Shown here: positions 979 through 12,673 of the stretch, piece by piece
How positions within the stretch are numbered: the stretch's first letter is position 1
Layout: the number at the start of each line of letters is the position of its first letter
Virus record (IMG/VR): IMGVR_UViG_2671180864_000011
Length of the DNA: 12,827 nucleotides
Origin: a virus
Lineage: Duplodnaviria > Heunggongvirae > Uroviricota > Caudoviricetes
Reading direction: 5' to 3' (one strand)
The notes under the pieces: model-generated
What the model was told of the DNA's origin: nothing
Databases searched by the model: none
Seen by the model: only the letters and a program-made list of their open reading frames with translations
Translations under genes and position numbers: made by a program

Positions 979-1269
979 TTAACTGTTTTTGCCTGGATAC
1001 TGTCTTCGAGAATGCACAATATTTACTACTTCTATGCTTGATGCTGTTACTCGGTAAAGGATGATGTAGTTAGGATGAGTTACAATTTCACGAAGACCAA
1101 GAACTCGCTCGCTTGGAGGATACAGGTAAGGATGCTCTGTGAGCGGCAAAACGGATGTTTCAATTCGAATTTTCATTCTGCGTGCTGCCGCGGGATTTTC
1201 TTTAGCTATGTAGGCTACGATCTGGCGCAAATCATCACGAGCAGATGGTAGCCATAAAACGGGTAACAT
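979..1269 (-). CDS. parE: ParE/RelE-family type II toxin (ParE2-like)
   Basis: 96-aa ORF with typical ParE/RelE length and sequence character (N-terminal LPVLWLPSARDDLRQIVAYIAKENPAAA, C-terminal IVNIVHSRRQYP). Its start overlaps the stop of the upstream small ORF (shared position 1269), as in toxin-antitoxin pairs. Confidence 0.85.
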   Translation of the reverse strand: MLPVLWLPSARDDLRQIVAYIAKENPAAARRMKIRIETSVLPLTEHPYLYPPSERVLGLREIVTHPNYIILYRVTASSIEVVNIVHSRRQYPGKNS

Positions 1270-1463
1270 TATTCACCTCTGTGAGTTGCAGCAGCAATTT
1301 GGGCAATAATTTGTTCCATTTCCGCCATTACCTCATCATGCGGAATCGCCGGGCGGGGATCCGCGAGGCTTGCTGCTACTTTGGCCCGCAGCCATTCGTT
1401 GTAACTATTTTCTTGCTCAACTGTCTCAAATTCTGAAACCATTGGGGAAAGGACTGTACTCAT
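1269..1463 (-). CDS. small antitoxin partner of the ParE toxin (PaaA2-like)
   Basis: 64-codon ORF immediately upstream of and overlapping parE, with an AGGAGA Shine-Dalgarno before its ATG. Acidic, helix-prone small protein. Size and position match the antitoxin of the three-component paaR2-paaA2-parE2 loci described in E. coli O157 prophages. Confidence 0.7.
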   Translation of the reverse strand: MSTVLSPMVSEFETVEQENSYNEWLRAKVAASLADPRPAIPHDEVMAEMEQIIAQIAAATHRGE

Positions 1464-1482: not shown

Positions 1483-1983
1483 TTAGGCGCGACGGCCTTT
1501 TTGTGCAGCTAACCACCGCGCAACCGTACGATCCATTGATTCTTTTTTATCTTTCATCTCCTGAAGCATGTGTTCTTGATCTTCTTTCGGAAAAGCTCTG
1601 AACGTATGGATTAAATCTCGTTCCATCGGCTCTACGGCAAACGGTAGTTCATCCTCTGTTTGTTCTGTGTCTGCTGGTAATGCGACTATGTTATCTTGCT
1701 GTGGTTCTCGACAATACATCCTTGCAATTTGCAGCAAATCTACCATGTCTGGCCTGATTGACTCAGGGGGAACTTTCAGTAAGCCAGCAAACTTTAGAAC
1801 AGCCTCAAGGTTTAGTGGGGTTTGACCATTTAGGTAGTGACTTACCGCCCCTTGTGTTGAAAACCCCATAATTTCCGCCGCACGTTCCTGAGTCAATCCC
1901 AACTGAGATTTCTTTGCCATCCAGATTTCTTTCAGTCTTCTGGCGGCGTTGAGGTCGGTGTCTGACAATGATTTTCTTTTCAT
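1483..1983 (-). CDS. XRE-family HTH transcriptional repressor (CI-like prophage repressor / PaaR2-like); the ORF also extends to a GTG at 2013
   Basis: HTH segment LTQERAAEIMGFSTQGAVSHYLNGQ. C-terminal ~80 aa are acidic with no S24 peptidase-like region. Divergent from a cro-like gene with dyad operators between them. First gene of the operon containing the antitoxin and parE. Confidence 0.8.
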   Translation of the reverse strand: MKRKSLSDTDLNAARRLKEIWMAKKSQLGLTQERAAEIMGFSTQGAVSHYLNGQTPLNLEAVLKFAGLLKVPPESIRPDMVDLLQIARMYCREPQQDNIVALPADTEQTEDELPFAVEPMERDLIHTFRAFPKEDQEHMLQEMKDKKESMDRTVARWLAAQKGRRA

Positions 1984-2018
1984 ACATCCAATTCTAATAA
2001 GATTGCTAATCACTTTGA

Positions 2019-2851: not shown

Positions 2852-3916
2852 ATGGCTAACGCCTGGCTCAGATTATGGCATGACATGCCAAATGACCCTA
2901 AGTGGCGAACAATTGCCAGGGTGTCAGGGCAGCCAATTGCAACAGTGATGGCAGTGTATATCCACCTCCTGGTGAGCGCGTCACGAAATGTCACGCGAGG
3001 TCACATTGATGTCACGACAGAAGATTTGGCAAGTGCGCTCGACGTGACAGAAGAGGTAATTGATTCAATTTTGCAGACGATGCAGGGGCGGGTACTTGAT
3101 GGTGATTTAATCACTGGATGGGAAAAACGCCAGGTGCTTAAAGAGGACAACGGCAATATTTCGCAAACCGCAAAATCTCCTGCAGAGCGCAAGAGGGCGC
3201 AGCGAGAGAGGGAAAGAAAGCGGGAACAAAATGGCGATTGTCACGGCGCGTCACGAAATGTCACGCACATGTCACGACGAGTCACGACAGATACAGATAA
3301 AGATACAGATAAAGAAGATCAAAACACTATGGTCCATGGCGTAAAAAACGCCACGAACCAGGCAGGGGATGTTCAGACCGTCAATCCTGGTCAGCCAGCA
3401 GGCTCGACACCGGAAGCCGATTCAGCGTATGCGCTGAAAGCCGATTCGGGCGCTGTGCAGCAGGTGATGACCGCAAGGCCGGAGCAATCACTCCAACTGC
3501 AGCAGCCTGAAGCCGATTCCGCCATTCAGCGGGAAGCCGATCGGGTAGCCCCGGAAAACACCGGGCAGCCTGTGGGACGAGTGGATTATCCGGATGTGTT
3601 CGAACAGGTCTGGCGGGAATACCCGTTGCGTGCCGGGGCAAACCCGAAGAAATCCGCATTCAGTGCCTGGAAGGCCAGATTGCGCGAGGGGGTGCCACCA
3701 GAGACCATGCTGGATGGTGTGAGGCGTTACGCGAGATACCTGGCGGCGACCGGGAAAGCGGGAACGGAATTTGTTCAGCGAGCGACGACGTTTTTTGGGC
3801 CGGACCGGAATTTTGAAAACCCCTGGTTGCTCCCGGTAAGCGGCACGAACAACCAGCGTTGTGTGAATCATATTTCTGAACCGGATACCGAAATTCCGCC
3901 GGGATTCAGGGGGTGA
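2852..3916 (+). CDS. phage replication initiator / replisome organiser (lambda O analogue, YdaU-like)
   Basis: AAGAGG Shine-Dalgarno 5 nt before the ATG at 2852 (ORF opens at a GTG at 2846). Sits directly upstream of the DnaC-like gene. Contains two clusters of GTCACG direct repeats and low-complexity charged stretches (ERKRAQRERERKRE, TDTDKDTDKED). Confidence 0.65.
   Translation: MANAWLRLWHDMPNDPKWRTIARVSGQPIATVMAVYIHLLVSASRNVTRGHIDVTTEDLASALDVTEEVIDSILQTMQGRVLDGDLITGWEKRQVLKEDNGNISQTAKSPAERKRAQRERERKREQNGDCHGASRNVTHMSRRVTTDTDKDTDKEDQNTMVHGVKNATNQAGDVQTVNPGQPAGSTPEADSAYALKADSGAVQQVMTARPEQSLQLQQPEADSAIQREADRVAPENTGQPVGRVDYPDVFEQVWREYPLRAGANPKKSAFSAWKARLREGVPPETMLDGVRRYARYLAATGKAGTEFVQRATTFFGPDRNFENPWLLPVSGTNNQRCVNHISEPDTEIPPGFRG
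2976..3019. repeat. iteron-like cluster A: GTCAC(G/A) at 2980, 2990, 3000 and 3011 (10-11 bp phasing)
   Basis: Direct hexamer repeats at helical-turn spacing inside the initiator gene. The 21-mer GCGCGTCACGAAATGTCACGC at 2976..2996 recurs exactly at 3246..3266. Confidence 0.55.
3240..3312. repeat. iteron-like cluster B: five GTCACG at 3240, 3250, 3260, 3271 and 3281, then a 12-bp tandem AGATACAGATAA x2 (3289..3312)
   Basis: Five phased hexamers followed by an A/T-richer tandem repeat; layout resembles the intragenic origin of lambdoid phages. Confidence 0.55.
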
Positions 3917-3922
3917 TGTGGC

Positions 3923-4669
3923 ATGAAAAACATTGCGGCAGCCGGGGTTCTTGAACGTATTCACAGACTTGCACCACAGGGGGCGGTTCCACCGTACCGG
4001 ACGGTGGAGGAGTGGCGGGAATGGCAACTTGCTGAAGGACGAAAACGCAGCGAGGAGATTAACCGCCAGAATCGCCAGTTGCGGGTGGAAAAAATCCTGA
4101 ATCGTTCGGGCATCCAGCCTCTGCACAGCAAATGCTCGTTTGCGAATTATCAGGTGCAGAACGACGGGCAAAAATACGCGCTGAGCCAGGCCAAATCCAT
4201 AGCTGACGAACTGATGACCGGGTGCACGAATTTTGTGTTCAGCGGTAAAACCGGCACCGGGAAAAATCACCTTGCAGCGGCGATGGGTAACCGGCTGATG
4301 GCGAAGGGGCGCAGCGTGATTATCGTCACCGAGTCTGATGTCATGAGCGTGTTGCATGACAGCTACGACAACGGCAAATCCGGTGAAAAATTTTTACAGG
4401 AGCTTTGCGGGGTTGATTTGCTGGTCCTGGATGAAATAGGCATTCAGCGGGAGACGAAAAACGAGCAGGTGGTATTGCACCAGATAATTGATCGCCGGAC
4501 AGCATCACTGTGCAGTGTCGGGATGTTAACAAACCTGAATCATGCCGCAATGAGCACGCTTCTTGGTGAGAGGATTATGGACCGCATGACCATGAACGGT
4601 TGTCGGTGGGTGACGTTTAACTGGGATAGCTGGCGTTCAAATGTCAGCTTTCCGGGAGTTGTGAAGTAA
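3923..4669 (+). CDS. DnaC-like AAA+ helicase-loader ATPase (phage P-analogue, YdaV-like)
   Basis: Walker A FSGKTGTGKNHLAAAMG and Walker B LLVLDEIG. Start lies 7 nt after the initiator stop, preceded by a GGGGGTGA Shine-Dalgarno. Confidence 0.85.
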   Translation: MKNIAAAGVLERIHRLAPQGAVPPYRTVEEWREWQLAEGRKRSEEINRQNRQLRVEKILNRSGIQPLHSKCSFANYQVQNDGQKYALSQAKSIADELMTGCTNFVFSGKTGTGKNHLAAAMGNRLMAKGRSVIIVTESDVMSVLHDSYDNGKSGEKFLQELCGVDLLVLDEIGIQRETKNEQVVLHQIIDRRTASLCSVGMLTNLNHAAMSTLLGERIMDRMTMNGCRWVTFNWDSWRSNVSFPGVVK

Positions 4670-5431: not shown

Positions 5432-5854
5432 ATGGCAAAAGTATTTACACAGGAAGAGCGGGAAAAAATTAAGGGGCAGGTTGTTGAACTCGTACGCCAG
5501 AGTGGGCGCGAGACGTTACGACAACTGGAAGCTAAAACCGGGGCGACAAGATATTTAATAAGCGTTCTCGCCAGAGAGCTGGTTGCCAGTGGGGATGTAT
5601 ACAACTCTGGCTACGGGTTATTCCCGTCTGAACAGGCTCGTAAGGACTGGCAAAACGCCCGCAAAAAACTCTCGAGGGCAAAGCTGAAGAAACCATCTGT
5701 GGTTGATCCGGACCTTATCTGGTCATTACCAGACGGAGAAATACGCCGCTACGACAGACATCAGAACATAATCTGTCGCGAGTGCCGGAAGAGTGAAGTT
5801 ATGCAGCGTGTACCGGCTTTCTATCAGGGTGATTTTCAGGAGGCGGTACTGTGA
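5432..5854 (+). CDS. hypothetical protein (140 aa), possible winged-helix N-terminus and C-terminal CxxC
   Basis: ATG at 5432 (track ORF opens at a TTG at 5417). A diverged, 5'-truncated second copy at 8744..9133 differs mostly at synonymous sites, which argues the reading frame is real and under selection. Confidence 0.6.
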   Translation: MAKVFTQEEREKIKGQVVELVRQSGRETLRQLEAKTGATRYLISVLARELVASGDVYNSGYGLFPSEQARKDWQNARKKLSRAKLKKPSVVDPDLIWSLPDGEIRRYDRHQNIICRECRKSEVMQRVPAFYQGDFQEAVL

Positions 5855-7470
5855 GTGAAATTAGCTATCAGGCTTCAATTACCGCTGGCATTCGCATCAA
5901 AGGAGAGGAGCATGGAAATAAAACCAGAAGATGAGTTAAGCAATATTGTTTTATTTCCGGTAAAAGAGGATAACCCTCGTAATCAGGTTAATTTTCTTTA
6001 TGAGCCATCGGAAAGACCATATTGCCATCACGCTTCTGTCCGGGTTGACGAAAAAGAGCGTCAGGTCCGCTGTAAAATTTGCGGTGCAGTTGTGGAGCCA
6101 TTTGACTGGATGCTCTCTGTGGCGAAAAGAGAAACCAGACTGGCAGATGATGTAAGGCTCTTGCGCCAGGAGGAGCGGGAAAGGCGAAAAAATATAGAAA
6201 AGCTAATCCAGATTGAGCGTAATGCGAAAGCGCGGATACGCAGGGTGACAAAATATAGCCCCGAATAATCAAGGTTATTTCTGGAAGTCAAGTCGTGAGT
6301 GATGAGGACTAACAAATACGGTGAACTCGATAAAGAGATTCAGGACGAACTGGAGGCCAGGAATGATTGACAAATCACCAAGTGAGTTCAGCTACAAAGA
6401 TTTATTGTCATAACGGGTTATGAGATCGACTTGGTGCGTGATATTCTTCGGGCCAGTTTGCTATGCGCCACCATGAGATGTTATGGCCCGCATGTTTGAT
6501 ACATTAGGATTTTACATTATGAATGTGCAACATTTTGATTTTTTTACAGATAATGAGTTTTCTAATCTGGAAAGATATCAAACTTGTAAAGCCATGGCCA
6601 AAGGTTATGCGGGCAATTACAAAACCGGGCAGTCAAGGTTGATGCATGCCCGCTCATACTGCTTCAGCATCGTAGCTGCATATTGGGATACCCTTGCAAA
6701 AAAGCAAAAAAGCAGCATTAAAATGAGGGCAGTACCGCACACTGTTTACATAGAAGACATTCCATGTGATGCACGCGAGCTCGCTGAACGAACAGGTGAG
6801 CTTATTGCTCAATTTCCGGCGGAGGACGCTGGATATCTGATTGGGTCAATTTATACGGTAATGCTGCCATCCGCTTACCGTTCGGAATTGGGGGCTTACT
6901 ATACCCCCCCACCTTTGGTAGCGCGTCTCTTGGACCTGGCTGAAAAGTCTGGTGTTGATTTTTCTCATGCATCGGTTATTGATCCTGCGTGTGGTGGCGG
7001 TGCATTTTTGGCACCAGTAGCCATTCGAATGTTAAAAAAAGACAAGGGGTCTTCCCCTGAATGGATGTTGAGGAGAATCAGTCGTCGTTTAAAGGGGATA
7101 GAAATCGATCCATTTGCGGCTTGGATGAGTTTGGTATTGCTCGAATCTGTACTAATGCCACTATGTGTAAAGGTAAAACGTAGATTGCCTGAAGATACAA
7201 TTATTGTTGCTGATGCGCTTCAGCAAGATAAATTTTCTGGTTATGATCTTGTGGTAGGGAATCCGCCTTACGGACGTGTCACTCTCGATATTAAAACGAG
7301 AGAAAAATATTCTCGTTCGTTATTTGGTCATGCAAATCTATATGGATTGTTCACCGACTTAGCTGTTCGCATGGTTAAAGAGAAAACAGGAGTTATTGCA
7401 TTTCTTACGCCAACTTCTTTTCTTGGTGGGCAGTATTTCACCGCGCTGCGAACCCTTTTGACCGAAAAAA
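5465..7470. repeat. copy 1 of a ~2.0-kb direct repeat (140-aa gene, zinc-ribbon gene, leader, methyltransferase 5' half)
   Basis: Collinear with 8744..10749 at a constant offset of 3279 bp. Encoded proteins are identical from about 5710 onward; the first ~245 bp carry multiple substitutions. Confidence 0.85.
5912..6268 (+). CDS. hypothetical zinc-ribbon-like protein with basic coiled-coil tail (118 aa), copy 1
   Basis: Strong Shine-Dalgarno AAAGGAGAGGAG before the ATG at 5912 (track ORF opens at a GTG at 5855). C-H-H...C-K-I-C spacing suggests a metal-binding ribbon; C-terminus RLLRQEERERRKNIEKLIQIERNAKARIRR. An identical copy lies at 9191..9547. Confidence 0.6.
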   Translation: MEIKPEDELSNIVLFPVKEDNPRNQVNFLYEPSERPYCHHASVRVDEKERQVRCKICGAVVEPFDWMLSVAKRETRLADDVRLLRQEERERRKNIEKLIQIERNAKARIRRVTKYSPE

Positions 7471-7526
7471 ATTGGCTAATGAGGTGTACTGGCAATAGCG
7501 GACACTACCATTTGTTCTTTTTTTAA
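6483..7526 (+). pseudogene. 3'-truncated copy of the N6-adenine DNA methyltransferase gene
   Basis: First 329 codons are identical to the intact gene at 9762..11594. Homology ends at 7470, followed by 9 unrelated bp and the IS left end at 7480. The ORF then reads through unrelated sequence to a stop at 7526. Motifs X, I and IV are retained; the C-terminal domain is lost. Confidence 0.8.
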
Positions 7527-8341
7527 GCAGCCATCTGATGATATTTTTCCCTGAAGGCTGCCGGGGAGATATTCCCCAGACGAGAGTGACGACGCTGACG
7601 ATTGTAGAAAATCTCAATGTATTCCCGTATTACTGAGATGGCTTCATCCCGGTTATTAAAACGATAGTGGCTCAGGCTCTCATTTTTCAGCGTTCCCCAG
7701 AAGCTTTCCATCGGAGCGTTGTCGTAACAGTTACCTTTACGCGACATTGATGTTTTCAGACCAGACTGCTCCTGTATGACCCGGTAATCGTATGCGCAGT
7801 ACTGTGAACCTCGATCAGAGTGGTGGATTAGCCCGGCAGGTGGGCGCTGGCTCCTGAGCGCCATAAACAGGGCTTTACCTGTCAGCTCTTTTGTCATGCG
7901 CTCTCCCATGGCGTAGCCGACAATTTCGCACGTATAAACATCTTTGATGCCAGCGAGGTACAACCATCCCTCCTGTGTGGCAACATACGTCAGGTCCGCC
8001 ACCCAGACCTGATTTGGTGCTGTAGGAGCGAACGTCTGGTTCAGCAGATTTGGCGCAACTGGCAGATTGTGGTTCGAGTTCGTAGTCGCTCTGAACTTGC
8101 GTTTCTGCTTACAGCGTAGCCTTAGCTCCTTACGAAGACGTGCCAGTCGGTCACGACCAACGATGATGCCATTCTCTGCCAGCTCCGTCTGGAGCCGCCG
8201 GGTTCCATATGTTTCGCGAGTGCGGATATGTGCCACCTTAATCTCCAGTTTTAGCCGCTCATCACTTTGTTTTCTGTCTGAGGGTTCATGCTGTACCCAG
8301 TTGTAATAACCGCTCCTGGATACACCAAATACCTGACACAT
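7523..8341 (-). CDS. IS3-family transposase OrfB (DDE catalytic domain), normally made as an OrfAB fusion by -1 frameshifting
   Basis: 272-aa ORF in the -1 frame relative to orfA. Integrase-type catalytic core typical of IS3 OrfB (VWVADLTY ... HHSDRGSQY ... NAPMESFWGTLK). Confidence 0.85.
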   Translation of the reverse strand: MCQVFGVSRSGYYNWVQHEPSDRKQSDERLKLEIKVAHIRTRETYGTRRLQTELAENGIIVGRDRLARLRKELRLRCKQKRKFRATTNSNHNLPVAPNLLNQTFAPTAPNQVWVADLTYVATQEGWLYLAGIKDVYTCEIVGYAMGERMTKELTGKALFMALRSQRPPAGLIHHSDRGSQYCAYDYRVIQEQSGLKTSMSRKGNCYDNAPMESFWGTLKNESLSHYRFNNRDEAISVIREYIEIFYNRQRRHSRLGNISPAAFREKYHQMAA

Positions 8342-8376: not shown

Positions 8377-8679
8377 TTAACGCGTATTTTTCAGCGACTC
8401 CTGTGCAAAATACGCTGTTGCTTTTTTTAATATATCTCGCTCAAGGCGAGCTTCATTTAACGCCTTACGCAGTTGCAGAATTTCAGATTCCAGTTCAGCC
8501 ACCGTGCGGGAACCAGGAGTACCGAGCCCTTTTCTGGCGGCGGTAACCCATTGTCCTAAAGTGCCTTCAGGAAGAGATAATCGGGAAGCGCCTTCACTGA
8601 TCGAAAGTTGATTTTCAGGAACCGTTCTGACAGCTTCGGCTTTGAACTCTTTAGAGTAACGTTGGGTTTTTCTGCTCAT
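8377..8679 (-). CDS. IS3-family transposase OrfA (HTH DNA-binding subunit)
   Basis: 100-aa ORF with a leucine-zipper-like C-terminus (ELESEILQLRKALNEARLERDILKKATAYFAQ) ending just after the slippery run. Confidence 0.85.
   Translation of the reverse strand: MSRKTQRYSKEFKAEAVRTVPENQLSISEGASRLSLPEGTLGQWVTAARKGLGTPGSRTVAELESEILQLRKALNEARLERDILKKATAYFAQESLKNTR
8422..8428 (-). other. programmed -1 ribosomal frameshift slippery run (A AAA AAA G on the minus strand) for OrfAB
   Basis: Seven consecutive T on the plus strand inside the orfA codons for L-K-K-A, in the orfA/orfB overlap. Confidence 0.6.
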
Positions 8680-8743
8680 TATTAGCTCCTTCTGATGCCA
8701 TTCTATTTCAGGAAGGAGTGTCCGTTAAACTCAGGCTACCTCA

Positions 8744-9133
8744 AAAATTAAAGGGCAGGTTGTTGAACTTGTACGTCTGAGCGGTCGCGAGACGTTGCGG
8801 CAACTGGAAGCCAAGACAGGTGCGACAAGATATCTGATGAGTGTTCTCGCCAGAGAGCTGGTTGCCAGTGGCGATGTATACAACTCTGGTTACGGGTTAT
8901 TCCCGTCTGAACAGGCGCGTAAGGACTGGCAAAACGCCCGCAAAAAACTCTCAAGGGCAAATCTGAAGAAACCATCTGTGGTTGATCCTGACCTTATCTG
9001 GTCATTACCAGACGGAGAAATACGCCGCTACGACAGACATCAGAACATAATCTGTCGCGAGTGCCGGAAGAGTGAAGTTATGCAGCGTGTACCGGCTTTC
9101 TATCAGGGTGATTTTCAGGAGGCGGTACTGTGA
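8744..9133 (+). pseudogene. 5'-truncated, diverged second copy of the 140-aa hypothetical gene
   Basis: Homology to 5465..5854 begins immediately after the IS right end and lacks the first 11 codons. About 20 nucleotide differences but only 3 amino-acid changes (Q to L, I to M, K to N). The track ORF 8795..9133 begins at an internal Met. Confidence 0.7.
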
Positions 9134-9190
9134 GTGAAATTAGCTATCAGGCTTCAATTACCGCTGGCATTCGCATCAAAGGAGAGGAGC

Positions 9191-9547
9191 ATGGAAATAA
9201 AACCAGAAGATGAGTTAAGCAATATTGTTTTATTTCCGGTAAAAGAGGATAACCCTCGTAATCAGGTTAATTTTCTTTATGAGCCATCGGAAAGACCATA
9301 TTGCCATCACGCTTCTGTCCGGGTTGACGAAAAAGAGCGTCAGGTCCGCTGTAAAATTTGCGGTGCAGTTGTGGAGCCATTTGACTGGATGCTCTCTGTG
9401 GCGAAAAGAGAAACCAGACTGGCAGATGATGTAAGGCTCTTGCGCCAGGAGGAGCGGGAAAGGCGAAAAAATATAGAAAAGCTAATCCAGATTGAGCGTA
9501 ATGCGAAAGCGCGGATACGCAGGGTGACAAAATATAGCCCCGAATAA
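9191..9547 (+). CDS. hypothetical zinc-ribbon-like protein, copy 2 (protein identical to copy 1)
   Basis: Same Shine-Dalgarno and ATG context as copy 1; translation identical. Confidence 0.6.
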   Translation: MEIKPEDELSNIVLFPVKEDNPRNQVNFLYEPSERPYCHHASVRVDEKERQVRCKICGAVVEPFDWMLSVAKRETRLADDVRLLRQEERERRKNIEKLIQIERNAKARIRRVTKYSPE

Positions 9548-9761
9548 TCAAGGTTATTTCTGGAAGTCAAGTCGTGAGTGATGAGGACTAACAAATACGG
9601 TGAACTCGATAAAGAGATTCAGGACGAACTGGAGGCCAGGAATGATTGACAAATCACCAAGTGAGTTCAGCTACAAAGATTTATTGTCATAACGGGTTAT
9701 GAGATCGACTTGGTGCGTGATATTCTTCGGGCCAGTTTGCTATGCGCCACCATGAGATGTT

Positions 9762-11594
9762 ATGGCCCGCATGTTTGATACATTAGGATTTTACATTATG
9801 AATGTGCAACATTTTGATTTTTTTACAGATAATGAGTTTTCTAATCTGGAAAGATATCAAACTTGTAAAGCCATGGCCAAAGGTTATGCGGGCAATTACA
9901 AAACCGGGCAGTCAAGGTTGATGCATGCCCGCTCATACTGCTTCAGCATCGTAGCTGCATATTGGGATACCCTTGCAAAAAAGCAAAAAAGCAGCATTAA
10001 AATGAGGGCAGTACCGCACACTGTTTACATAGAAGACATTCCATGTGATGCACGCGAGCTCGCTGAACGAACAGGTGAGCTTATTGCTCAATTTCCGGCG
10101 GAGGACGCTGGATATCTGATTGGGTCAATTTATACGGTAATGCTGCCATCCGCTTACCGTTCGGAATTGGGGGCTTACTATACCCCCCCACCTTTGGTAG
10201 CGCGTCTCTTGGACCTGGCTGAAAAGTCTGGTGTTGATTTTTCTCATGCATCGGTTATTGATCCTGCGTGTGGTGGCGGTGCATTTTTGGCACCAGTAGC
10301 CATTCGAATGTTAAAAAAAGACAAGGGGTCTTCCCCTGAATGGATGTTGAGGAGAATCAGTCGTCGTTTAAAGGGGATAGAAATCGATCCATTTGCGGCT
10401 TGGATGAGTTTGGTATTGCTCGAATCTGTACTAATGCCACTATGTGTAAAGGTAAAACGTAGATTGCCTGAAGATACAATTATTGTTGCTGATGCGCTTC
10501 AGCAAGATAAATTTTCTGGTTATGATCTTGTGGTAGGGAATCCGCCTTACGGACGTGTCACTCTCGATATTAAAACGAGAGAAAAATATTCTCGTTCGTT
10601 ATTTGGTCATGCAAATCTATATGGATTGTTCACCGACTTAGCTGTTCGCATGGTTAAAGAGAAAACAGGAGTTATTGCATTTCTTACGCCAACTTCTTTT
10701 CTTGGTGGGCAGTATTTCACCGCGCTGCGAACCCTTTTGACCGAAAAAACTACTCCGTATGCCCTTGATTTCGTCACTGACAGGGATGGGGTCTTTGACG
10801 ATGTTCTCCAGGAAACAATGTTGACAGCATTCAAGGCGGGAGAACATAAAGTTCGGGCCCAGGTATCCTCACTTGTCCCTAAGGGGTTGAACAAAGCAAA
10901 AATTGAGAAAATAGGTAATGTTGATATAGAAAAAGGTGGAGCAACGTGGCTTTTGCCACGCGTTAAAGATGATGCCTGTTTTCTTAATGTATTAAAACAG
11001 ATGTCTACGCGTTTAGCTGATCTGGGATACTCAGTCTCTACAGGTCAGTTAGTCTGGAATCGATTTAAGTCGCAGTTGCGTACGACGAAAGGAAAAAATA
11101 GCTACCCATTAGTCTGGGCGGAATCAATAACTTCAGCTGGTTTTCGTTTTAGTGCAGACAGAAAAAATCATGTTCCCTATATCGATATAACCCCACAACA
11201 GGGTTTCCTTGTGACAAAATCTGAATGTGTGCTTGTTCAGCGGACAACATCGAAGGAACAGGACAGAAGGATTTTAGCGGCAATTTTACCTCAGGGATTT
11301 ATAGATGAAACTGGTGGCGTAGTAGTTGAAAACCATATTAATATTGTATATTCAAACGGATTGTTCTCTGCGGTTCGCCCTGATGTTATTGATATGCTAC
11401 TTAATTCGCATGTTGTCGATCGGGCGTTCAGGTGTATAAGCGGAAGTGTTGCTGTTTCGGCCTATGAATTGAATTCAATCCCGTTGCCTTCTCTGGAGCA
11501 GGTGATGGAGATTCAATCGTTAATTGATGCTGGCGTCCACAGACGGATTATTGAGAGAACTATCGCTGGTTTCTATGGAGTGATGATTGCATGA
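9762..11594 (+). CDS. gamma-class N6-adenine DNA methyltransferase (type II RM-type; possible true start at ATG 9798)
   Basis: Motif order X (GAYYTPPPLVARLL), I (DPACGGGAFL), IV (VVGNPPYGR), followed by a ~340-aa C-terminal region consistent with a target-recognition domain. AGGA lies 9 nt before the ATG at 9798; the ATG at 9762 has no Shine-Dalgarno. Confidence 0.85.
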   Translation: MARMFDTLGFYIMNVQHFDFFTDNEFSNLERYQTCKAMAKGYAGNYKTGQSRLMHARSYCFSIVAAYWDTLAKKQKSSIKMRAVPHTVYIEDIPCDARELAERTGELIAQFPAEDAGYLIGSIYTVMLPSAYRSELGAYYTPPPLVARLLDLAEKSGVDFSHASVIDPACGGGAFLAPVAIRMLKKDKGSSPEWMLRRISRRLKGIEIDPFAAWMSLVLLESVLMPLCVKVKRRLPEDTIIVADALQQDKFSGYDLVVGNPPYGRVTLDIKTREKYSRSLFGHANLYGLFTDLAVRMVKEKTGVIAFLTPTSFLGGQYFTALRTLLTEKTTPYALDFVTDRDGVFDDVLQETMLTAFKAGEHKVRAQVSSLVPKGLNKAKIEKIGNVDIEKGGATWLLPRVKDDACFLNVLKQMSTRLADLGYSVSTGQLVWNRFKSQLRTTKGKNSYPLVWAESITSAGFRFSADRKNHVPYIDITPQQGFLVTKSECVLVQRTTSKEQDRRILAAILPQGFIDETGGVVVENHINIVYSNGLFSAVRPDVIDMLLNSHVVDRAFRCISGSVAVSAYELNSIPLPSLEQVMEIQSLIDAGVHRRIIERTIAGFYGVMIA

Positions 11595-12673
11595 ATCTGC
11601 CTGTTGTTCCCCCATTGAATGTTATCCGGGAAAGATTACAATTAATTTTCCCTGAAGGGACTGAGAATCGTGGATATTTAATTCGGGAAATAGCTGCAAA
11701 AACAATTTTTGTCATGTTTTATGCTGGTGCGGTTGAGGGGCTGGGGCGATGGATAAGGCCCAGCCAGGTTGTAAGTATGGGAGATTCGCAGGCTGCTCTT
11801 ACTGATGATGCGTCCAGAGAAAGCTGGGTAAAGATGACTTTCTCTAAACAAAAGATAAGGCCTGCTGATGCATGGTATGCGGAAAATACGCGTGAGCCAA
11901 TACGTGATGAAACTATAAAAAATGGCCTAATACCTTGCAATGCAATTGTTGAGCGTAAAGGTATACCCACCACATCCTCTCGTCCTCGTTACAGTTTGAA
12001 TCGCTCTTTTGCAGCACTCTTTGATGCCGGGCTTGAAGGAGATTCGCTGCTGAGTGCAATAAGTTCCTGGCAAGAAAATCATTTGAACAAAGCCGCTCTT
12101 GCTAGGTTGCGTTTATTGAAATCAGGGGCAGTGATTGCTGCTGATGCCGTAGTCGTCACTTTCCCAAATGGAGAGAAGAGAACTTTAGCTCCGGGCCCGT
12201 CAAGTACAATAGCTAAGGCCGTCATCGAAGTTTTTGCTCCTAATTTTCTTAAGAATCCAACTGTGCTCTGGTTGTCTGAATCCGGGAATAAAGTTGTTGC
12301 TCAGGATGATGTATTGGCAAAAGCATTGGGGCTGAATATTGATGCCTCAAAAGCACTTCCAGATATTATTTTGATTGATTTGGGAGAGGACCGAACGGGT
12401 TCGGACATGCTTGTAGTTTTCACTGAAGTAGTTGCGACAGATGGGCCTATAAACAGGGAACGAAAAGTTACTCTCACTCATTTGGCTATTGACGCTGGGT
12501 TCAGCGAGAAAAATCTTGCATTCCTTACGGCATTTATGGACAGAAGTGCTCTGCCTTTTAAAAAGGCAATACCAGAATTGGCGTGGGGATCTTATGCATG
12601 GTTTGCTTCTGAACCGGAGCACTTAATTGATCTTCGGGATGGTTATCCGGTAAAGATCAGCCAGAGAAAATGA
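11591..12673 (+). CDS. putative restriction endonuclease partner of the methyltransferase (possibly BsuBI/PstI-like); function not proven
   Basis: 360-aa ORF whose ATG overlaps the methyltransferase stop (ATGA at 11591..11594). Same AT-rich composition as the methyltransferase. No unambiguous PD-(D/E)xK motif identified by eye, so the call rests on gene context. Confidence 0.5.
   Translation: MNLPVVPPLNVIRERLQLIFPEGTENRGYLIREIAAKTIFVMFYAGAVEGLGRWIRPSQVVSMGDSQAALTDDASRESWVKMTFSKQKIRPADAWYAENTREPIRDETIKNGLIPCNAIVERKGIPTTSSRPRYSLNRSFAALFDAGLEGDSLLSAISSWQENHLNKAALARLRLLKSGAVIAADAVVVTFPNGEKRTLAPGPSSTIAKAVIEVFAPNFLKNPTVLWLSESGNKVVAQDDVLAKALGLNIDASKALPDIILIDLGEDRTGSDMLVVFTEVVATDGPINRERKVTLTHLAIDAGFSEKNLAFLTAFMDRSALPFKKAIPELAWGSYAWFASEPEHLIDLRDGYPVKISQRK

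Follow-up and report, generated by a model that had tools for sequence, protein, structure and literature searches.

A likely replication origin embedded in the initiator gene of a lambdoid, Rac-like prophage of Escherichia coli

We analysed a stretch of 12,827 nucleotides (the 12.8-kb window, to which all coordinates refer) that belongs to a lambdoid, Rac-like prophage of E. coli and carries genes for several regulators, followed by the gene of a replication initiator and by that of a DnaC-like helicase loader. The initiator gene itself contains two arrays of a short repeated motif, an AT-rich tract and a recombination junction. The features on which the analysis bears are the following:

1483-2013, minus strand: HTH repressor gene
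2068-2358: cro-like HTH gene
2355-2780: YdaT/CII-like gene
2852-3916, plus strand: initiator gene, 354 aa (winged-helix domain, charged helix, disordered linker, helical C-terminal domain)
2976-3018, plus strand: iteron cluster 1 (GTCACG starting at 2980, 2990 and 3011, and GTCACA at 3000)
3043-3048, minus strand: inverted iteron copy (TGTCACG on the minus strand)
3240-3286, plus strand: iteron cluster 2 (five GTCACG, starting at 3240, 3250, 3260, 3271 and 3281)
3287-3330, plus strand: A-rich, AT-rich tract, a predicted DNA-unwinding element (73% AT, 70% purine on the plus strand; includes AGATACAGATAA twice)
3310-3321, no strand: recombination junction between the N-terminal/putative origin module and the C-terminal module, from E. 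coli partial-gene matches and the mosaics L001-L004
3330-3360, no strand: imperfect palindrome TGGTCCATGGCGT-AAAAA-ACGCCACGAACCA, just past the AT tract
3923-4669, plus strand: DnaC-like helicase-loader gene (Pfam IstB_IS21 and Bac_DnaA; NCBIfam PRK12377, 499 bits)
Downstream of the DnaC-like loader gene: DUF1627 and DUF977 genes

The N-terminal domain of the initiator is a DnaD-like winged helix. AlphaFold2 modelled it confidently over residues 1-93, with helices 56-63 and 67-77 forming the helix-turn-helix and a beta-hairpin wing at ~78-89, and placed behind it a charged helix (residues 110-130), a disordered region (residues 132-225) and a helical C-terminal domain. The protein matched PHROG 3729, 'replication initiation protein', with E = 3e-250 and, weakly, families of 'replisome organizer' in the same collection (E = 2.4e-5 and 4.2e-4), and PGAP labels it 'phage replisome organizer'. 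No Pfam family was found for it at E ≤ 0.01, including the O-protein domain and Phage_rep_org_N, and a sequence search of solved structures returned nothing significant. Some phage records name it 'DNA replication protein O', which is annotation only. The DnaC-like loader would be the partner of the initiator C-terminal domain. DNA more than 95% identical is present in seven sequenced E. coli phages, and the initiator gene is matched over at least 80% of its length in 1,647 of the 5,426 complete E. coli genomes.

Nine of the ten copies of the hexamer GTCACG in the window fall within only 307 bp of this gene (2980-3286), the remaining one being located at 8150, whereas the chance expectation is 4.3 ± 1.9 copies scattered across the entire 12.8 kb. 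On the plus strand they form the two clusters listed above. A preliminary description of this DNA, made from the sequence alone, had counted four and five copies; five is correct for cluster 2, and four is reached in cluster 1 only by counting the variant GTCACA (3000-3005), which fills the gap between the exact copies. The 10-11 bp phasing that it reported is borne out by the start-to-start distances, which are 10, 10 and 11 bp in cluster 1 (variant included) and 10, 10, 11 and 10 bp in cluster 2. It had also noticed an exact 21-bp repeat shared by the two clusters and an A/T-richer 12-bp tandem following them, and we found both: GCGCGTCACGAAATGTCACGC at 2976-2996 and 3246-3266, one copy per cluster, and two consecutive AGATACAGATAA at 3289-3312, after cluster 2 and within the 40-mer of lowest stability in the gene. 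The inverted copy at 3043-3048 was absent from that account. At the protein level, cluster 1 encodes residues 43-56, corresponding to the end of helix 29-45/49 and the loop that precedes the helix-turn-helix; the inverted copy encodes D64-V65-T66, in the turn that leads into the predicted recognition helix; and cluster 2 encodes residues 130-145, forming together with the AT tract the coding sequence for the beginning of the disordered linker. The location of cluster 1 within the coding region of a folded domain is unusual. At the scale of the window, GC skew carried no origin signal.

Repeats inside a coding sequence can reflect the DNA, the peptide or both, and the preliminary description considered the two to be confounded at this locus. 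This is true of the 21-bp repeat only, whose copies lie 270 nt apart and therefore in the same frame, so that ASRNVT is encoded twice. It is not the case within the clusters, each of which contains the hexamer in all three frames, read as SR, VT, GH and CH. Because three codon phases are used within each cluster, peptide repetition is unable to explain the hexamers. Synonymous re-encoding of the whole gene, with codons drawn according to the usage of the window itself, left a mean of 0.6 GTCACG in the region 2976-3312 and a maximum of 5, versus the 8 observed, a number that none of the 20,000 trials reached.

A protein search with the N-terminal 158 residues of the initiator as query detected 773 relatives in Enterobacterales, Pseudomonas, Chromobacterium, Bordetella and other genera, and for the DNA of homologues we used 47 loci drawn from GTDB species genomes. 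GTCACG occurred at matching relative positions (+128, 138, 148 and 159) in about 24 of these 47 loci, whose GC content ranges from 34 to 69%. In this GTCACG class the equivalent of cluster 2 consists of 3-5 copies at about +386 to +450, the inverted copy is often kept at +191 (at +179 where the locus match starts at residue 5), and the hexamer is nearly absent from the rest of the ~24 homologous 5-kb loci. Neighbouring copies are spaced by 10 or 11 bp in 122 of 126 cases (22 loci), and the conserved unit is restricted to an asymmetric core of 6-7 bp separated by degenerate spacers (22 loci). In the codon alignment, the succession GCG TCA CGn AAT GTC ACG CGn GGT CAC ... GTC ACG is essentially invariant while adjacent synonymous sites vary. 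We quantified this in a non-redundant set of 21 homologues from beta- and gammaproteobacteria (locus GC 34-69%), considering conserved residues with degenerate codons: codon entropy was 0.24 bits at the 13 columns with the third base inside a hexamer, versus 1.47 bits at 48 other conserved columns (Mann-Whitney p = 7.6e-7). Thus, for example, Ser44 is encoded by TCA in 20/21 sequences, Val47 by GTC, Thr48 by ACG and Gly50 by GGT in 21/21 each, and His51 by CAC in 20/20. The preliminary description had left it to an alignment of homologues whether hexamer phasing is conserved at synonymous sites; in distant homologues both the identity of the hexamers and their phasing are, and none of the ~24 GTCACG-class loci keeps the peptides with scrambled hexamers.

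In relatives, the loop encoded by cluster 1 takes insertions of 7 to ~20 residues built from extra hexamers, which makes it a permissive site, and among E. coli strains the copy number of cluster 1 is 4 or 6, with 6 in the E. coli relatives L001 and L002. One of the relatives, a 50.9-kb circular 'plasmid' of P. aeruginosa, is a complete lambdoid phage genome encoding this initiator, and its sole GTCACG cluster (4 + 1 inverted + 4) lies inside the initiator gene. Matches to plasmids were discarded as proof of autonomous replication, since they corresponded to large plasmids with prophage-like DNA, mis-labelled chromosomes or this circular phage genome.

Stability within the gene is lowest in the 40-mer that starts at 3291 (75% AT), which ranks at the 99.8th percentile of the window. 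The corresponding 40-mer of most homologues also begins directly after cluster 2, usually above the 99th percentile of its own locus, and it typically contains GATAAA or GATACA units, even in hosts with 60-69% GC. A (GATAMA)n tract is found directly 3' of cluster 2 in most homologues, with a number of units that differs among E. coli strains; in the window, the whole AT tract is short (about 44 bp). At the (GATAMA)n column Asp is encoded by GAT in 19/19 sequences, in contrast with several other Asp columns, where GAC is the prevalent codon. Both the repeats and the AT tract are under selection at the level of their DNA sequence, which for the repeats is independent of the encoded protein. Since every iteron class, and hosts whose GC content reaches 69%, retain the hexamer GATAAA/GATACA itself and not just its AT content, GATAMA is perhaps more than a passive melting region; where the N-terminal domain is unrelated, (GATAMA)n is swapped for a purine repeat, (GAACAG)n. 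The initiator could recognise GATAMA sequence-specifically as a single strand, which would make this element functionally analogous to the DnaA-trio, an idea that we put forward tentatively and consider rather unlikely. The imperfect palindrome at 3330-3360 was the only notable hit of a promoter and terminator scan in which match counts were at chance level. It accompanies the C-terminal module and not the iterons, being present in L003 and absent from L001 and L002, and its membership in the origin is uncertain.

The initiator gene is a mosaic. E. coli genomes fall into three groups, having respectively the whole gene, only nt 1-458 (84-87% identical) or only nt 466/470-1065, which sets the junction at about 3310-3320, just past the tandem. 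The N-terminal domain, the iterons and the AT tract are inherited as one module. This module is joined in L001 and L002 to a DnaT-like C-terminal domain and a lambda-P-like gene, and in other genera it is found with IstB/DnaC-like, P-like or unrecognised partners; L003 and L004, conversely, have only the C-terminal half of the gene in common with the window. Because the modules join differing partners, it can be said that the repeats go with the N-terminal domain, not with the loader or the neighbouring regulators. The putative origin block sits between the N-terminal DNA-binding module and a C-terminal module that varies with the downstream loader gene. Sequence comparison shows a conserved architecture, and a linkage between the repeats and the N-terminal domain.

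Distant members of the same N-terminal domain have no GTCACG and use an alternative core in the same two-cluster layout. This core is GTAACG in L024, L027, L036 and L040, CGAACG(CA) in eight loci, and ACTACG in L042 and L050, where it is sited deeper in the gene (about +325 to +360, and in L050 also near +460 and +640). ACG is the shared ending of all four cores (GTCACG, GTAACG, CGAACG and ACTACG). In the E. coli mosaics L003 and L004, which have an unrelated N-terminal domain, AAGGGGCTT repeats are found at two equivalent places, and after the second set come the (GAACAG)n purine tract and, next, the junction to the shared C-terminal module. The residues that separate the GTCACG from the CGAACG class are mainly the iteron-encoded residues 42-56 and residues 65-66, which immediately precede the predicted recognition helix, with a few others at positions 30-31 and 96. 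The loop encoded by cluster 1 may itself determine iteron specificity, the site and the segment that recognises it being then encoded in the same nucleotides. This is less likely than the single-strand recognition suggested above for GATAMA, and the tolerance of the loop to insertions of 7 to ~20 residues speaks against it.

We consider it likely that this element is the origin from which the lambdoid, Rac-like prophage replicates, lying within the region that codes for its own initiator. The comparisons suggested in the preliminary description all favoured an origin: the repeats keep their identity and phasing at synonymous sites, the tract that adjoins them is the least stable of the gene, and the block is positioned at the junction of the N- and C-terminal modules, as in lambda O. 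The linkage of the repeats to the N-terminal domain and the co-variation of motif class with this domain suggest that the initiator binds them, bearing in mind that, because the sites lie inside the gene, the two are genetically inseparable by comparison alone. Melting and origin firing would follow by analogy with characterised origins. In the mechanism that we propose, the N-terminal winged-helix domain would bind the (T)GTCACG cores, and their spacing of one helical turn would align the bound proteins on one face of the DNA. Cluster 2, the predicted core initiator-binding array of the origin, abuts the A-rich (GATAMA)n tract and would form with the initiator a nucleoprotein complex able to melt the region 3287-3330. 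The initiator C-terminal domain would then recruit the downstream DnaC-like loader and the host DnaB. Cluster 1 and the inverted copy at 3043 would be an auxiliary array located 260 bp upstream, which could serve cooperative wrapping, looping, or the control of copy number or expression.

Other functions can be envisaged for the same repeats. The arrays might be initiator-binding sites devoted to autoregulation or copy control, acting as an in-gene roadblock or by handcuffing, with the true origin elsewhere in the phage. Such a role would suit cluster 1, which is inside the region coding for a folded domain and 260 bp away from the AT tract, and plasmid iterons have both initiation and control roles. 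A weak promoter-like match also lies over cluster 2 on the minus strand, such matches being, however, at chance level. We regard control as the sole function of the arrays as improbable given that, in the window and in most homologues, cluster 2 abuts the stretch of lowest stability in the gene, that the complete 50.9-kb relative is devoid of a second motif cluster, and that proven origins have the same layout (PMC7466680, PMC6316719). A control function may still hold for cluster 1 alone.

It appears very unlikely that the repeats bind a different protein, from the phage or from the host, such as a repressor, a CII-like regulator, DnaA or a nucleoid protein. The class of motif goes with the initiator N-terminal domain in hosts ranging from Entomomonas to Pseudothauera even as the downstream partner changes, the annotated neighbouring regulators differ among the E. 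coli mosaics, and a host factor would not switch from GTCACG to CGAACG between relatives. A DnaA-box-like string, TATATCCACC, does occur upstream of cluster 1 (2956-2965), but it is not conserved at the DNA level and its codons vary freely in homologues, so we took it for a chance match. We give hardly any credence to a third explanation, namely that the repetition is a by-product of the peptide repeats (ASRNVT...VTT) or an mRNA-level signal, devoid of function as double-stranded DNA. The in-frame 21-bp repeat with its duplicated ASRNVT and the conservation of S44, V47, T48, G50 and H51 as protein are compatible with it. However, the three frames give differing peptides, synonymous positions are fixed inside the hexamers and variable outside them, the encoded loop accommodates insertions made of extra hexamers, the conserved inverted copy favours recognition of duplex DNA over RNA, and Rfam produced zero family matches across the whole window.

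The replication origin that we propose most likely represents a familiar layout in a protein family for which the open-access literature searched describes no origin; these papers contained no account of these repeats, of iterons in DnaD-like phage initiators or of the origin of this family. The concept itself will not surprise a specialist in phage replication. It nevertheless provides a well-supported origin prediction for an initiator present in ~1,650 of the 5,426 complete E. coli genomes and in many beta- and gammaproteobacterial prophages, marks the expected centre of prophage in-situ amplification, and defines a portable module composed of the putative origin and the N-terminal domain. 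The cores GTCACG, GTAACG, CGAACG and ACTACG constitute a natural specificity series on an otherwise highly conserved winged-helix domain, well suited to study how initiator-origin specificity, and hence replicon incompatibility, diverges. The locus is, in addition, a clean case of an overlapping DNA signal that constrains a protein-coding sequence, with a strong synonymous-site signal spanning two proteobacterial classes.

Several known systems share part of these characteristics. In E. coli K-12, the ydaU-ydaV module of the Rac prophage occupies the same place, preceded by the cro-like and YdaT genes and followed by a DnaC-like gene. However, YdaU is a DUF1376 protein unrelated to the N-terminal domain studied here, its internal repeats (..GATGTTCAA..) are different, and the K-12 record has no annotated origin feature in the Rac module; Rac oriJ was, for these reasons, rejected as a counterpart. 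Plasmid iterons are about 17-22 bp long and lie outside the rep gene. In comparison with iteron-type plasmid origins and their winged-helix Rep proteins, the cores found here are short and located inside the gene. A length of ~20 bp has been reported for plasmid iterons (PMC2647930).

Phage origins are more similar. In the Bacillus phage SPP1, oriL consists of directly repeated sequences together with an AT-rich unwinding element inside gene 38, which encodes the origin-binding replisome organiser gp38 and is followed by the helicase-loader gene (PMC6316719). The SPP1 gp38 system and the one described here have in common the in-gene repeats with an unwinding element, a replisome-organiser fold and a helicase-loader gene in the next position. 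They differ in that our system belongs to proteobacterial hosts, has unrelated repeat sequences and lacks a detectable Pfam Phage_rep_org_N domain. An equivalent of oriR, the second origin, was seen neither in the window nor in the complete 50.9-kb relative. By its fold, gene order and layout, the initiator fits the replisome-organiser kind, the curated Pfam model being unmatched.

In phage lambda, the initiator-bound repeats lie beside an AT-rich tract inside gene O, and the two iterons nearest to this tract are sufficient (PMC7466680). The iterons of lambda form a single array of 4-6 imperfect inverted repeats of 19 bp, whereas the prophage has asymmetric 6-7-bp cores with 10-11-bp spacing in two arrays 260 bp apart. 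Moreover, its initiator is no homologue of O (no Pfam match), and the partner encoded in the window is DnaC-like, not P. Iterons of lambda type (~19 bp, with internal dyad symmetry) were therefore rejected as a description of these repeats, of which only the 6-7-bp asymmetric core is conserved. With the exception of cluster 1, which is inside the coding region of the N-terminal domain, the arrangement is nevertheless that of lambda ori/O and its variants in Stx phages: the repeats are followed by the AT tract at the junction between the DNA-binding and loader-binding parts of the protein, their number varies among relatives, adding residues to the protein, and the origin together with the N-terminal part forms an exchangeable specificity module (PMC7466680).

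The iteron cores of the different sub-families (GTCACG, GTAACG, CGAACG and ACTACG) have the 3' half ACG in common, as seen in a comparison of alternative cores within nt 1-500 of the initiator gene at each of the homologous loci L024, L027, L032-L040, L042, L046, L047 and L050. Because every core retains ACG, the sequences suggest that conserved residues of the initiator read one half-site and class-specific residues the other. The third core of cluster 2, the iteron array closer to the AT tract, is mutated to GTCATG in a single strain, E. coli 99-3311 (locus L053), where the gene upstream of the initiator is a truncated pseudogene adjoined by an IS3-family transposase gene; this prophage is possibly decaying.

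At its other end, the initiator carries a tail that may be a portable peptide contacting the loader or the helicase:

3850-3916: C-terminus of the initiator, with the tail ...SEPDTEIPPGFRG

This tail is kept in homologues that are otherwise unrelated in their middle and C-terminal parts, and the C-terminus of DnaT matches it weakly. At the nucleotide level, the final 60 nt of the initiator gene recur with 92-97% identity at the ends of otherwise different E. coli genes (matches H35-H47).

Further genes of the window are:

979-1269, minus strand: RelE/ParE-family toxin gene
1269-1463, minus strand: small ORF immediately upstream of the toxin gene
7523-8341 and 8377-8679, minus strand: IS3-family transposase genes
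9762-12673: 610-aa methylase of the Eco57I/N6_Mtase type and, after it, a 360-aa endonuclease of the BsuBI/PstI family

The small ORF may encode the antitoxin of the RelE/ParE-family toxin, as annotated in the relatives L002 and L003. The methylase and endonuclease genes look like a type II restriction-modification pair. The IS3-family element is flanked on both sides by the copies of a 2,023-bp direct duplication (5460-7482 and 8739-10761), identical at 98.2% of positions overall and at 100% from about 5700 onwards. This arrangement reflects either a duplication linked to the IS or an error of assembly. The element truncates the N6-adenine methylase ORF of the first copy (6483-7526), and that of the second copy (9762-11594) is whole.

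Two further features concern the sequence 3' of the AT tract, one present in relatives and the other in the window:

L055 45450-45480, and also L011, L014, L018 and L020: C runs directly 3' of the (GATAAA)n tract
Window 3330-3360, immediately 3' of the AT tract: imperfect palindrome with 13-bp arms, TGGTCCATGGCGT-AAAAA-ACGCCACGAACCA

Such C runs (e.g. ACCCCCCTTACCCCCCTGAGGGGG), which code for a PPxPP(R)G peptide, follow the AT tract in many relatives and are absent from the window; those of L055 make a C5/G5 inverted repeat. L055 (CP137943.1, 50.9 kb, circular) was submitted as a plasmid of P. aeruginosa; it is the complete genome of a lambdoid temperate phage and has genes for an integrase, an S24 repressor, CII, an initiator of the window type, a DnaB-like helicase, NinB/NinG, a terminase and tail proteins; its PLSDB gene table omits the initiator gene. 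The palindrome of the window is found in L003, which shares only the C-terminal half of the initiator, and is missing from L001 and L002, which share the N-terminal and iteron module; it belongs to the C-terminal module. It recalls the palindrome that lambda ori has on its right side.
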